This document shows, piece after piece, positions 25,582 through 60,552 of a stretch of 64,000 nucleotides of DNA. Made by a program: the position numbers and the translations under genes. This stretch comes from an uncultured Bacillales bacterium (GTDB lineage Bacteria; Bacillota_I; Bacilli_A; RFN20; CAG-826): NCBI GenBank assembly GCA_946612115.1, contig CAMOEI010000005.1, forward strand, positions 23,462 to 87,461, given 5' to 3'. The notes beneath the pieces are model-generated. The model saw nothing but the letters and a program-made list of their open reading frames with translations, had not been told where the DNA came from and searched no databases. Within the stretch, counting starts at the first letter, position 1. Each line of letters opens with the position of its first letter.

Positions 25582-25666
25582 GCGCAGGTGGCGGAACTGG
25601 TAGACGCGTACGTTTGAGGGGCGTATATCGCAAGATGTGTGAGTTCGATTCTCATCCCGCGCACCA
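25582..25666 (+). tRNA. tRNA-Leu (anticodon GAG), long variable arm
   Basis: GCGCAGGTGGCGGAACTGGTAGACGCG…loop UU-GAG-GG…GAGTTCGATTCTCATCCCGCGCACCA; 85 nt, encoded CCA. Confidence 0.8.
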
Positions 25667-25673
25667 AATTGAA

Positions 25674-25707
25674 AAAAAATACAAGGATTTATCCTTGTTT
25701 TTTTTAT
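25674..25707. terminator. Bidirectional terminator ACAAGGA-ttt-ATCCTTGT flanked by A8/T8
   Basis: Seen in sequence; serves tRNA-Leu (+) and the acyltransferase gene (-). Confidence 0.8.
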
Positions 25708-26780
25708 GCTTGTGGTAACTCCTCTTTCTTTTTACGTTTGAATTTATCAAATAACAAGAACAATGGGGTTTCTAATGCGTATTTTCTAAATATATCGATG
25801 ATTAAGCAAAGAGTAAAAACAATCGCTACCGACATTACTAAATGCCAAAGCATATTCGCTGAACTACAATAATCTTGAGTCCTAAAAAGAACTTTCCAAT
25901 AATAATTTCTTAAAGAATCATTATCGTGAATCAAATAAATTCCTAAAGTGAATCCTGCAATAAAGTTAATAGGCTTTGAATATATTGGCTTTGCCATAGA
26001 TAAAAGCATCATTAAGCCAAACACCATTAAAATCATAAATACACTATGTCTAGAGATAAACCAGTTAATCATATACGCCATATCGAGATGACTAATCGAG
26101 ATTAACGACATGATTAATTGGAAGACAAAGATTATTCCAAGATTAATAAATAGCATTAATAATCCAGTTTTCTTATTGAACCATTTTTGCCCACTTTCTT
26201 TTGATAATCTTAAAAATGCTCCATAGCAATATAAACAGAATAACGATAAGAATCTATTTAGATAAAATGTCCCTGCAGTGATAGAAGGAACAATCGACCA
26301 GACTACTGTAATAATAATCATGAACTTAAAAGCCAAAGAGTAATTTTCTAGTTTAAATAGCTTATTTATAAACGGATGAAACAAATAGACTAATAGATAC
26401 GCAGAAACAAACCAACTTCTTTCAAAGAAGAGGCCAAAGATAGTTTTCAAGAACTCGTCCGAATCAAATTGCTTCCCATCCACTAGAACAAAGGATAACC
26501 CATAAAACAATAAGATATAAAAGTAATATTCAAGGACTAGTTTTACGATGTGAAATACATTTACCTTTTCCGATTTCCAAAGGAAAAATTCAGAAATCAT
26601 CATGAACATCGCTACCCCCATGTCTCCAAGAGATAAATTATTCGCTAGGATCAAATTAGCGGTAGAGATATTTGCATTATCTTTTGTCCCCATCATGTAA
26701 TGGGAAATAATAATAAAAACAATTGCGACAATTCTTAATATTTCAAAAGTTGAGTTTCTAATTTTATTCTCACTTGCCAT
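25704..26780 (-). CDS. Acyltransferase family 3 (OatA-like) integral membrane protein
   Basis: N-terminal FEILRIVAIVFIIISHY motif; ~10 TM helices; 358 aa. Confidence 0.7.
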   Translation of the reverse strand: MASENKIRNSTFEILRIVAIVFIIISHYMMGTKDNANISTANLILANNLSLGDMGVAMFMMISEFFLWKSEKVNVFHIVKLVLEYYFYILLFYGLSFVLVDGKQFDSDEFLKTIFGLFFERSWFVSAYLLVYLFHPFINKLFKLENYSLAFKFMIIITVVWSIVPSITAGTFYLNRFLSLFCLYCYGAFLRLSKESGQKWFNKKTGLLMLFINLGIIFVFQLIMSLISISHLDMAYMINWFISRHSVFMILMVFGLMMLLSMAKPIYSKPINFIAGFTLGIYLIHDNDSLRNYYWKVLFRTQDYCSSANMLWHLVMSVAIVFTLCLIIDIFRKYALETPLFLLFDKFKRKKKEELPQA

Positions 26781-26927
26781 TACTTAAGTTGATTGTATAA
26801 AAAAATGAACATAATTTAAATAGCGTCTAGCTTTTTAATTTATTTTTAGTTTTACTAAATGTTTATTATTTGTGAAAGGAGTATTTGAATAATGAAAAAA
26901 TTCTTCACAGTGACATACTCCCACCAC

Positions 26928-28085
26928 TTATAGAAGTAGGGGCTTCTTGCTCGATGACTCTAATGAGCCAAGCATAAACAAGCTATCCGGATGTGTCCCA
27001 TCCTTAGTAAGCATTTCAATTCCCTTACGTAGAATATTTTTAGCTGCGTTTATATCTCGATCATGGACTGAGCCACATTGAGGGCATGTCCATTTTCTTA
27101 CTCTTAAATCTTTAGTGAGAGGATTTTGATAATTGCAGTAACTACATAATTGACTACTTGGATAATTAGTAGGAACCTTAACAATAACGTTCCCATACCA
27201 ATTAGCCTTATAAATAAGCATAGAAACAAATTTAGACCAACTCGCATCAGAAATGCTTCTAGCGAGTTTAGTGTTTCTAGTCATATTTTTTACTTTCAGG
27301 TCTTCAATACAAATGATTTGGTTTTCATCAATGATAATTCGAGAAAGTTTATGTAAATAGTCATTACGTTGATTCTCTATTTTCTTATGAATTCTAGCAA
27401 CTTTAATTCTTTGCTTGTTACGGTTATTACTACCCTTTTTCATAAGAGATAGTTTTCTTTGTTCTCTAGCGAGTTTATTTTGTGATTTGGTTAAGTATTT
27501 ATGGTTTTTATATTTATTCCCGTTAGAGTCAATAATTAGCTCTTTAATCCCTAAGTCTAATCCAATCGCATTATCTAAAAATTTAATAGATTCAGAATTC
27601 TCCTCAACAAGCAAAGAAATATAATACTTCTCATCCGTAGTCTTACTAACAGTTACAGATTTAATTTCACCTATAAAGTCACGATGCTTCTTTATTCTAA
27701 TACGAGGACATTTAGGAATAGATATATATCGGTCGTTAGAGGAGAACTTCACACTTCCCTGGTTATTTGTGGTATAGCTTTGATCATTCCTTTTAGATTT
27801 ATATTCAGGAAAACCATTTTGCTTTTTATAAAACGATTTAAAAGCCGCGTTTCTTGCTAATTGTGCGTTACATAAGGCTAAAGAATCAACATCTTTTAAA
27901 AATGGATAATCCTTTTTATATCTAGCGGGAGTGATATTTTCATTTTTACCAGTAGATTTATATATCTCACACATATCTGAAAGAGACTTATTATAGAAAA
28001 ACCTTACACATCCAAAAACTCTAGAGAAGTATTCCTTCTGACTAGCGTTAGGATAGATGCGATATTTATAAGCTTTTCTAATCAT
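26928..28085 (-). CDS. tnpB: IS605 OrfB/TnpB (RuvC-like nuclease + C-terminal Zn finger CSYC…CPQCG); RNA-guided (OMEGA) nuclease family
   Basis: MIRKAYKYRIYPN… N-terminus; GLDLGIKE RuvC-I; CxxC…CxxC near the C-terminus. Confidence 0.85.
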   Translation of the reverse strand: MIRKAYKYRIYPNASQKEYFSRVFGCVRFFYNKSLSDMCEIYKSTGKNENITPARYKKDYPFLKDVDSLALCNAQLARNAAFKSFYKKQNGFPEYKSKRNDQSYTTNNQGSVKFSSNDRYISIPKCPRIRIKKHRDFIGEIKSVTVSKTTDEKYYISLLVEENSESIKFLDNAIGLDLGIKELIIDSNGNKYKNHKYLTKSQNKLAREQRKLSLMKKGSNNRNKQRIKVARIHKKIENQRNDYLHKLSRIIIDENQIICIEDLKVKNMTRNTKLARSISDASWSKFVSMLIYKANWYGNVIVKVPTNYPSSQLCSYCNYQNPLTKDLRVRKWTCPQCGSVHDRDINAAKNILRKGIEMLTKDGTHPDSLFMLGSLESSSKKPLLL

Positions 28086-28117
28086 AAACCTCCTAATTCA
28101 AGGAGTTAGATTAGTTA

Positions 28118-28513
28118 TCATTCTCCCTGAGATTCGATATATTCCTTGATTGTCTCAATATTAGCCACACCTATAGAGATAAGACAGAAAGACTGAGACC
28201 AGAATGCTTCTTTATATAATCTAGATCTAATAGAAGGAAATTCTTTCTTTATTAGTCTAGAAGAAGCAGACTTATAAGCATTGATGAACTTAGAGATATT
28301 AGAATTTGGTTCACTTCTAAATAAAATGTGAACACGATCCAAATCATGGTTCCATTCTTCAAGAGCAATATTATAATTACCCTCAATATTCCTAAATATC
28401 CCTTTTAACCTTTCAGATATTTCATCATTTATCACCTTTTTACGATATTTAACTACCAAGATTAGATGAAAATGAATCGCGAATACTGAATGGTTATTAC
28501 TCCTCAATTCCAC
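28118..28513 (-). CDS. tnpA: IS200/IS605 Y1 (HUH) transposase TnpA
   Basis: HFHLIL (HuH) motif and a Tyr-containing helix near the C-terminus (RLYKEAFWSQS); 131 aa. Confidence 0.85.
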   Translation of the reverse strand: MELRSNNHSVFAIHFHLILVVKYRKKVINDEISERLKGIFRNIEGNYNIALEEWNHDLDRVHILFRSEPNSNISKFINAYKSASSRLIKKEFPSIRSRLYKEAFWSQSFCLISIGVANIETIKEYIESQGE

Positions 28514-28658
28514 ATCTATATTATATCATTATTTATAATTATATAAAAGGATATAGTGACTTATTTTTGTACTTATTACGACTGAATGTAATAATTTCAA
28601 TTCATCCCCCACCTATAGAGGTATCCATCAATTTAACAAATTACTGTGGGGGACTTAC

Positions 28659-29192
28659 TTGAATATGTTAAAGAACATTTTACTATGTGTGGCAACCTTC
28701 TTAGCCGTCTTAGTGTTTGTCTTCTCATTCTTAGTGGCCTTAAAGCTCACTGGTGATTCTACTTCTATCACTTTCTATGGAATCATTTGGGGAAGCAATA
28801 AATCAGTAGAGACAATTGGAAGCGTATCCCATACAGACACCTATGATCCAGCTCTTCACGCTGCAGCTCTTCCATTAGTTGGAGCTATCTTAGTCTTAGT
28901 TGGCGGATTAGCAGCTTGCTTATTTGGCTTTGTTCTTAAAGACAAGAAATGGGCAAAATATGCTGTCATCGTTTCAGCAAGCTTAATGGTTCTTGGAGGA
29001 GTCTTCTTTTTCTTCACATATCCAGCATTCTGTCAATCCTACGCTGAATTCGCAGGTGGTAGCACAACTGCTGCTGATATTAAAGATCTCTGGAAAGATT
29101 CACATCCAAATGTTGCTTTAGCAGTTGTCGCTGGCATCTTATCCATCCTTGGTGGTTTATCTGCTTGCGGTTCACAATTACTTAAAAAATAA
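28659..29192 (+). CDS. Hypothetical 4-TM membrane protein
   Basis: 177-aa hydrophobic ORF immediately downstream of the IS left end. Confidence 0.4.
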   Translation: MNMLKNILLCVATFLAVLVFVFSFLVALKLTGDSTSITFYGIIWGSNKSVETIGSVSHTDTYDPALHAAALPLVGAILVLVGGLAACLFGFVLKDKKWAKYAVIVSASLMVLGGVFFFFTYPAFCQSYAEFAGGSTTAADIKDLWKDSHPNVALAVVAGILSILGGLSACGSQLLKK

Positions 29193-34138: not shown

Positions 34139-34214
34139 GGATGCTTAGCTCAGCTGGGAGAGCATCGCCTTTACACGGCGGAGGTCGGCGGTTCGATCCC
34201 GTCAGCATCCACCA
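34139..34214 (+). tRNA. tRNA-Val (UAC)
   Basis: GGATGCTTAGCTCAGCTGGGAGAGCATCGCC-TTTACAC-GGCGG…CCA; 76 nt; TTGATT-17-TATATT promoter ~50 bp upstream. Confidence 0.85.
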
Positions 34215-34238
34215 AGTAAATTACGCAGATATAGTTAT

Positions 34239-34322
34239 GGAGGGGTAGCGAAGAGGCTAAACGCGGCTGACTGTAAATCAGCTCCTTCGGGTTCGGCGGT
34301 TCGAATCTGCCCCCCTCCACCA
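34239..34322 (+). tRNA. tRNA-Tyr (GUA), long variable arm
   Basis: GGAGGGGTAGCGAAGAGGCTAAACGCGGCTGA-CTGTAAA-TCAGC…CCA; 84 nt. Confidence 0.85.
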
Positions 34323-34349
34323 ACTTGCTTCTAGTTTGGGGCAAGAGAT

Positions 34350-34424
34350 TGGGGTGTAGCCAAGAGGTAAGGCATCAGACTTTGACTCTGACATTCAGTG
34401 GTTCGATCCCACTCACCCCAGCCA
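34350..34424 (+). tRNA. tRNA-Gln (UUG)
   Basis: TGGGGTGTAGCCAAGAGGTAAGGCATCAGA-CTTTGAC-TCTGA…CCCCAGCCA; 75 nt. Confidence 0.8.
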
Positions 34425-34430
34425 TTAGTT

Positions 34431-34506
34431 GACTCGCTAGCTCAGTCGGTAGAGCACTTGACTTTTAATCAAGGGGTCCGGAGTTCGAATCTCCGGCGAG
34501 TCACCA
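34431..34506 (+). tRNA. tRNA-Lys (UUU)
   Basis: GACTCGCTAGCTCAGTCGGTAGAGCACTTGA-CTTTTAA-TCAAG…GCGAGTCACCA; 76 nt. Confidence 0.85.
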
Positions 34507-34521
34507 CTCAACTGACTATTT

Positions 34522-34608
34522 GCCCAGGTGGCGGAATAGGTAGACGCACAAGACTTAAAATCTTGCGAGGTTAAACTCGTACCGGTTCGATTCCGGTCCC
34601 GGGCACCA
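34522..34608 (+). tRNA. tRNA-Leu (UAA), long variable arm
   Basis: GCCCAGGTGGCGGAATAGGTAGACGCACAAGA-CTTAAAA-TCTTG…CCCGGGCACCA; 87 nt. Confidence 0.85.
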
Positions 34609-60202: not shown

Positions 60203-60552
60203 GTGAGTCTTCGATCCTGTAAGCCATGTTTTGTCTAGGATGATAATTTATCTAAGATTAACTTACTCGAGTCAATTCGTTTCTTTATCGAGTCTCCCCT
60301 ACCAAACTTGGGTTTCTCACTTACGGGGTTTACCGCGTTCCACCTTACCCTTTCAGATAAGCTCCGTCACTGTGGCACTTTCAGGAACTTTACCATGGAT
60401 TTCTCTTTAGGTTAGTTTCCGCCGTCACGTACTCCTACGTGCCTAGTGTTATTTTTTCCACTAGCGTAATCACTACAGCCATCACAGACTGTGCGAGCAT
60501 GGACTTTCCTCTAACTAACTAGTAGCCAGCAATCATCCAGACCGAAGGTTTA
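60203..60552 (-). ncRNA. rnpB: RNase P RNA, Bacillus type (type B)
   Basis: Minus-strand GAGGAAAGTCCATGCTCGCAC…GAAAGTGCCACAGTGACG…GGAACGCGGTAAACCCC…GAGAAACCCAA…GGTAGGGGA…ACATGGCTTACAG. P1 pairing CTTCGGTCTGG / CAGGATCGAAG. gpsB–rnpB synteny as in B. subtilis. Confidence 0.8.

Follow-up and report, generated by a model that had tools for sequence, protein, structure and literature searches.

In IS200/IS605 insertion sequences, the transposase TnpA is a Y1 HUH enzyme that acts on a single DNA strand in both excision and insertion and reads the subterminal hairpins; in the type of element considered here it cleaves 3' of TTTAA at the left end and 3' of GTCAC at the right end. The second protein, TnpB, binds an RNA (ωRNA) that comes from the 3' end of its own transcript, with the host DNA beside the right end as guide. 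TnpB cuts the 'empty' donor site (TTTAA followed by a match to the guide), and recombination then restores the element. The subject of this analysis is an unnamed IS605-group member of the IS200/IS605 family, located on the minus strand of a 64,000-nucleotide stretch from an uncultured Bacillales bacterium (contig CAMOEI010000005.1, positions 23,462 to 87,461; the whole stretch is referred to as the window). Among the closest described systems, TTTAA is the experimentally determined transposon-associated motif (TAM) of related TnpBs (PMC11043419; PMC12908284). The ωRNA of a TTTAA-type TnpB ends in UUCAC, the guide begins right after, and NTTAA is tolerated (PMC11043419); the TAM of ISAam1 is TTTAA (PMC12908284). 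The TnpA of IS608 is inactivated by mutation of H64, H66 or Y127 (PMC3597680). We hold with high confidence that the window carries a tnpA–tnpB copy that was probably immobilised by an H60R substitution in TnpA and by lesions in its ends, has a TnpB–ωRNA module that is probably functional, and is inserted in a gene for a membrane protein.

TnpA matches the family models well above their cut-offs (Pfam Y1_Tnp, 132 bits, cut-off 23; NCBIfam transpos_IS200, 126 bits, cut-off 55) and aligns end to end with the TnpA structures of IS608 and ISDra2. Y125 and Q129 (the third metal ligand) are retained. The HUH motif reads R60-V-H62, not H-V-H, and the full catalytic set of TnpA is not present. Codon 60 is CGT (28334–28336), as compared to CAT in the consensus, a single A>G transition. 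The surrounding region is DLDRVHIL in the window, with DKDHIHIL and PDHVHLL in the IS608/ISDra2 structures; H-V-H is kept in 17 of the 20 related loci that have tnpA. R60 is the equivalent of H64 in IS608. As a catalytic histidine of TnpA is mutated, the window copy is probably stuck: by analogy with IS608, the transposase is probably disabled and the copy unable to mobilise itself. Arg60 concerns the activity of this copy, not its ancestry. Other private changes in TnpA are Y92F, K124E and Val115, where relatives carry Gly or Glu. The GTG start without a Shine-Dalgarno sequence is common to the whole family of related copies; it is a family feature and no defect of the window copy.

Both ends of the element carry private changes as well. 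In the left end, 3 nt are deleted and three bases substituted. The linker on the 5' side of the hairpin, near 28657, takes in the deletion as well as one substitution (C>T) and reads CAAGTAAG-TCC in the window and CAAGCAAGAAG-TCC in the consensus. Folded as single-stranded DNA, the left end gives −11 kcal/mol (z = −2.6), and a promoter-like TTTATA-16-TATAAT (28547–28520) lies just upstream of tnpA. In the right end, a private C>T at 26938 produces a G·T mismatch in the hairpin stem, the stability of which as single-stranded DNA is −4.0 kcal/mol in the window and −7.4 kcal/mol in the consensus. No compensatory changes were found in the right-end hairpin, and its support is sequence conservation. 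An AAGAAG box precedes both the left-end and right-end hairpins and is conserved across copies. The left end and tnpA (8 private events in 550 nt) have about five times the density of such events seen in tnpB (3 in 1158 nt), with p ~0.007 by a binomial estimate. The left-end deletion and the right-end mismatch may reduce mobilisation in trans; with the HUH arginine and lesions in both ends, the window copy would no longer move alone. The bases that follow the invariant first C of the left end (28662–28666 in the window) are hypervariable among copies (ATATT, GTAAG, GTTTT, GTATC, GTATA, GTAAA, TTTTT and CTAAT were seen), and the next box, AAGCAAGAAG, is conserved.

The boundaries were defined by blastn against 30 related loci and by alignment of the ends (48 distinct right ends and 14 left flanks). 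Across some 50 related copies, similarity breaks off at 26910 and 28667, and in every one of the 30 loci it ends at the same two points. On the minus strand the element starts with C-ATATT... and finishes with ...AGTATGTCAC. The right end of every related copy is ...GGTGGGAGTATGTCAC, and TTAAC precedes the left end in each of them. Terminal inverted repeats are absent, and the target is not duplicated; the two ends are dissimilar, and each contains a subterminal imperfect palindrome. The distinct left flanks read TTTAA/C in 13 of 14 cases and ATTAA/C in the other (the slash marks the insertion point). Three empty sites were found, all TTTAA/T, and these are collinear with the joined flanks, with no base gained or lost. 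One (L033) corresponds to the window site and is matched gap-free by the joined window flanks; a second (L046) corresponds gap-free on both flanks to the site of L098, and the third (L065) to the right flank of L025. In 46 distinct right ends the nine bases up to the end of GTCAC are essentially invariant and the next base varies with the insertion site, being T in about two-thirds and C, A or G in the remainder. A first boundary model, with TTAAC as the target and an element from 26909 to 28666 ending in GTCACT, was given up; the boundary was moved by one base to 26910–28667 because the base after GTCAC is site-dependent, the three empty sites read TTTAA/T, published relatives combine UUCAC with the TAM TTTAA, and a Clostridium botulinum element has the same layout. 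A hybrid model, with cuts after TTAAC and after GTCAC, was also rejected since it leaves an extra base in the empty site and breaks the reading frame. Host DNA 3' of the insertion point begins with T in about two-thirds of some 46 right flanks and in all three empty sites, which suggests an extended target preference, TTTAA/T.

All the defining structural features of the IS200/IS605 family are thus present in the element, except for the HUH motif of the window copy. A preceding sequence-only reading of this DNA had recognised an IS200/IS605 element with a Y1 HUH TnpA, a TnpB with RuvC and zinc finger, uninterrupted tnpA and tnpB genes and subterminal hairpins, all of which our data bear out; the string that it quoted, CCCACCACTTATAGAAGTAGGGGC, is present at 26920–26943 and is the subterminal imperfect palindrome of the right end. 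The termini and target motif, for which it looked to further copies, are now defined by the related copies and the three empty sites. The span that it gave, 26780–28660, overshoots the right end by about 130 nt and stops 7 nt before the left end, and 'intact' is too strong a word given the arginine in place of the first HUH histidine. That the genes are uninterrupted does not make the copy recently active.

The insertion is not intergenic. The element had been placed between an acyltransferase gene and a membrane-protein gene; it splits the latter, a gene of 180 codons, after codon 6. When the flanks are joined, the plus strand reads AAAGGAG-N10-ATG AAA AAA TTC TTC ACA / TTA AAG AAC ATT in a single frame, and the reconstructed product (MKKFFT/LKNILLCVATF..., 180 aa) is a small predicted multi-pass membrane protein. 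A search with this protein identified an uninterrupted orthologue, P0121 on the L033 contig (180 aa, 91% identity), with the N-terminus MKKFFTLKNILLC, which is also found in more distant homologues. The element parts the gene body from its own promoter and ribosome-binding site. At its outermost, the left end reads CAT on the minus strand, and these bases provide an in-frame ATG for the truncated gene at 28665–28667 on the plus strand, and a G-rich stretch, GGGGGA (28648–28653), is located 11 nt upstream of it. The disrupted gene might be translated from this element-made start codon. Transcription out of the right end is in the sense direction toward the acyltransferase gene (25704–26780), and no terminator-like site was found between the right end and that gene.

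TnpB scores 448 bits against NCBIfam IS200_TnpB (cut-off 425), with Pfam matches to HTH_OrfB_IS605, OrfB_IS605 and Cas12f1-like_TNB. The RuvC triad is conserved (D in IGLDLG, E in ICIEDL and D in HDRDINAA), as is the zinc finger CxxC...CxxC. Residues 3–356 align with the ISDra2 TnpB structures 8EXA, 8BF8 and 8H1J (E = 2e-75), with the catalytic residues in register. As compared to 119 close homologues, two residues are nearly private, K94E and the variable position 250; at the position of K94E, ISDra2 TnpB has Arg. The sequence suggests that TnpB and its predicted ωRNA are probably still functional. The hairpin in the tnpA–tnpB spacer could couple or limit the translation of tnpB.

From the tnpB stop codon (TAA), which is part of the right-end hairpin loop, it is 18 nt to the right end, and 26790–26909 is host DNA, so the predicted ωRNA scaffold must overlap the 3' part of tnpB. 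An ωRNA across the tnpB 3' end and the right end had been proposed and agrees with this, but the interval suggested for it (26790–26940) extends about 120 nt too far outward, the element ending at 26910. In ten full-length copies, nucleotide diversity is 0.03–0.06 over the last ~130 nt and about 0.15 elsewhere, third-codon-position diversity is 0.065 in codons 356–385 and 0.22–0.31 elsewhere, and codon periodicity is lost across the ωRNA region. This collapse of diversity is the signature of a second, non-coding constraint, which is strong and covers some 100–120 nt at the 3' end of tnpB and the right end. The segment ~27005–26910 is almost invariant in the 48 distinct right ends. A structure set by hand, with three local helices and the right-end hairpin, has 98.5% paired cells as compared to 29–46% in slid controls, although this control is lenient, the structure having been derived from the same sequences. 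Compensatory change is seen at three pairs, mainly in the helix 26970–26955. An RNAalifold consensus was set aside because it paired the arms of the right-end hairpin long-range, and the hand-set local hairpin was used. Single-sequence folding of the right-end region behaved like shuffled sequence (z = −1.3), and Rfam gave no match to the element, whether the gathering threshold or E <= 1 was applied. We regard the ωRNA structure as plausible rather than proven.

The position of the guide was set from the right-end boundary and the UUCAC rule (PMC11043419), and both the predicted TAM TTTAA and the predicted guide TGTGAAGAATTTTTTC derive from insertion sites and published relatives. The guide coincides with the opening codons of the gene that the element disrupts. 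Its only perfect match in the window is the insertion site itself; an off-target search of the window gave near-matches at chance level, none of them after TTTAA. The predicted target, TTTAA followed by the guide sequence, exists only as the uninterrupted allele and is split by the element in this genome. TnpB–ωRNA would cut 5'-TTTAA-TGTGAAGAATTTTTTC-3', that is, the uninterrupted allele. The features are collected in Table 1.

Table 1. Features of the element and of the gene that it interrupts, in window coordinates
Feature	Position	Strand	Size	Details and basis
Whole IS200/IS605 (IS605-group) element	26910–28667	minus	1758 bp	Related copies and empty sites
Target site and predicted TAM, 5'-TTTAA-3'	28668–28672	minus		Directly 5' of left end; left flanks and empty sites
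Left end	28514–28667	minus		Hairpin arms 28646–28653/28605–28612 and inner small hairpin
tnpA, Y1 HUH transposase	28118–28513	minus	131 aa	GTG start; uninterrupted open reading frame (ORF)
tnpA–tnpB spacer hairpin, CTCCTTGAATTAGGAG	28090–28105	minus		Terminator-like match; includes tnpB Shine-Dalgarno sequence AGGAGG
tnpB, RNA-guided nuclease	26928–28085	minus	385 aa	ATG start after AGGAGG; uninterrupted ORF
Predicted ωRNA scaffold	26910–27030	minus		Overlaps last ~34 tnpB codons and right end
Predicted scaffold helices	~27028–27024/27011–27007, 27003–26999/26993–26989, 26974–26965/26960–26948	minus		Followed by the right-end hairpin
Right-end subterminal imperfect palindrome, CCCCTACTT-CTAT-AAGTGGTGGG	26920–26942	minus		Bulged T; conserved across copies
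Predicted ωRNA guide, TGTGAAGAATTTTTTC	26909–26894	minus	16 nt	Host DNA directly 3' of GTCAC
Orphaned 5' gene fragment	26892–26909	plus	ATG + 5 codons	MKKFFT; ribosome-binding site AAAGGAG at 26875–26881
3' part of interrupted gene	28668–29192	plus		LKNILLCVATF...; ORF and orthologue P0121

TnpB has thousands of homologues, the top 120 of which are 81–100% identical and nearly all 385 aa long. The matching genomes are metagenome-assembled genomes (MAGs) of uncultured Erysipelotrichaceae, 'Bacillales' and Bacilli, many of them from rumen; among uncultured Erysipelotrichaceae of the rumen and related Bacilli, the element family is common. The TnpB and TnpA of the window each form one singleton cluster, and the nearest relatives are about 93% identical at the DNA level. 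Exact-sequence matching of the window TnpB and of P0001 against a contig index gave no match. Phage and plasmid collections contain distant relatives only (<=70% DNA identity). Decay of tnpA recurs in the family. The HUH motif is substituted in the window (H60R), in L065 (H>Y at the same residue) and in L020 (second His to R), and tnpA has a frameshift in L001 and an 11-aa deletion in L003/L008; L005/L012 and L013 are among the further loci listed for tnpA decay. The gene is absent in 11 of the 27 loci with a full-length tnpB (~40%), with tnpB intact in 31 of 32 loci. Loss of tnpA with tnpB kept fits the published picture of TnpB outliving TnpA.

In some relatives the invariant ωRNA/right-end segment is itself interrupted, by an IS110-family element of about 1.5 kb (L028:218-1733, L071:1811-3326 and L057:~1-74) whose 381-aa protein product has the domains DEDD_Tnp_IS110 and Transposase_20. 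The insertion point is identical in the three IS605-type copies (...CCGGATAG^...^GCTTGTTTATGC, equivalent to about 26984 in the window), and the IS110-carrying copies occupy at least two distinct host sites. From these sequences it looks as if the IS110 element targets the guide-RNA region of another mobile element in a sequence-specific manner. A wider picture can be drawn, in which a lineage in rumen Bacilli repeatedly loses or kills its transposase and keeps tnpB with an almost invariant, dual-coding ωRNA, the window copy is a TnpB–ωRNA module that selection has maintained since the copy was immobilised, and an IS110-type (bridge-RNA-class) element homes on the ωRNA segment in relatives. 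We think it unlikely that this picture holds.

A fully intact, autonomous and recently active element, in line with the sequence-only reading, would account for the two open ORFs with their strong scores, the recognisable ends and the unoccupied orthologous site in a close relative. We regard this as quite improbable: the HUH motif carries H60R and IS608 TnpA loses its activity when the equivalent residue is mutated, the left end has a private 3-nt deletion and the right-end hairpin a mismatch, and no second copy of tnpA, tnpB or either end was found within the 64-kb window. With the nearest relatives at about 93% DNA identity, no recent burst is visible, and as excision is precise in this family, an empty site elsewhere gives no insertion date. 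If the arginine were instead an assembly or sequencing error, the element could be an otherwise normal, active copy. A single A>G transition in a MAG-like source (the relatives are all MAGs and the protein is a singleton cluster) is compatible with such an error, but the same copy has other private changes in the parts for transposition, namely Y92F and K124E in TnpA, the deletion in the left end and C>T in the right end, and the independent HUH substitutions in two relatives indicate that such variants occur; this explanation has in our view a very slender chance of being right.

It is also conceivable that the immobilised TnpB–ωRNA module is retained by selection, for a host or selfish function, so that the copy represents early domestication rather than neutral decay. 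The recurrent tnpA decay in the family, the many tnpB loci without tnpA and the nearly invariant ωRNA segment would all agree with this. However, the known role of TnpB in homing and retention already explains tnpB without tnpA, the guide is plain flanking DNA as for any mobile copy, the intact RuvC domain speaks against a TldR-like repressor, and nothing ties the element to a host phenotype. We give selection for the module only a slim chance. The reading that we prefer, an immobilised copy with a probably functional TnpB–ωRNA, has several points against it. TnpA with Arg at the first HUH position may possess residual or altered activity, a single-base error at 28335 is possible in a metagenome-type assembly, and TnpA from another copy outside the window could mobilise the element in trans. 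The ωRNA and its 5' end are predictions, as are the TAM and the cleavage, and covariation support is thin (three compensatory pairs) because the segment is nearly invariant.

The value of these results lies mainly in annotation. The exact ends, the target motif TTTAA and the predicted guide are defined, the neighbouring 'membrane-protein gene' becomes an IS-disrupted gene and tnpA is to be annotated as probably inactive. With this locus there is a further natural TnpB of the TTTAA-TAM type (385 aa), whose predicted ωRNA is compact and lies almost wholly inside the ORF; this could interest those who mine genomes for small editors. The element is only mildly unusual, in that the tnpB ORF runs through nearly the whole predicted ωRNA scaffold and in the recurrent tnpA decay, and the understanding of IS200/IS605 or TnpB biology is unchanged. 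Elsewhere in the window, Rfam identifies a tRNA right downstream of the acyltransferase gene (25582–25663, plus strand), a five-tRNA cluster (34139–34605, plus strand) and a class B RNase P RNA (60215–60544, minus strand), RNA genes that are consistent with a Bacillota-type genome.

In its mode of action the element would be akin to ISDra2 and to the TnpB elements of the TTTAA type. Compared with described systems, it resembles ISDra2 of Deinococcus radiodurans in having tnpA and tnpB in the same order on one strand, a TnpA that aligns with E = 5e-18, identical TnpB catalytic residues (D/E/D) and zinc finger, subterminal hairpins and a pentanucleotide 3' of which it inserts; its predicted ωRNA, like that of ISDra2, overlaps the 3' end of tnpB. 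The target and TAM are TTGAT in ISDra2 and TTTAA here; here tnpB reaches to 18 nt from the right end, almost the whole predicted scaffold being dual-coding, and the first HUH histidine is missing in the window TnpA. The IS605-type TnpB7 of Sulfolobus islandicus (PMC11043419) and ISAam1 (PMC12908284) share the TAM and target TTTAA, tolerant at −5, and a right end and ωRNA (predicted for the window element) that end in (U/G)UCAC with the guide directly after, a likeness of motifs taken from published descriptions. They differ in host lineage, which is rumen Bacilli for the window element, itself known from sequence alone. IS200/IS605 elements on plasmids of C. botulinum, C. sporogenes and C. perfringens (for example NZ_CP031095.1, 33724–35219) are about 66–69% identical in DNA over parts of tnpA and tnpB. 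The C. botulinum plasmid element has TTTAA/C..., the AAGAAG box, a hairpin whose loop is CTAT, and ...TTCAC/ at its right end, the same ends as here; in the Clostridium element the tnpB stop lies about 100 nt before the right end and the ωRNA is mostly non-coding, whereas the window ORF runs through. With IS608 of Helicobacter pylori the element shares the Y1 HUH fold, the motif layout, the conserved Tyr and Gln, and hairpin ends that have a bulged T, each hairpin being preceded on its 5' side by a short box; by analogy, the AAGAAG box could be the counterpart of the IS608 guide tetranucleotide. The two elements differ in target, TTAC in IS608 and TTTAA here, and in the HUH motif, which is H64-x-H66 in IS608 and R60-V-H62 in the window copy.

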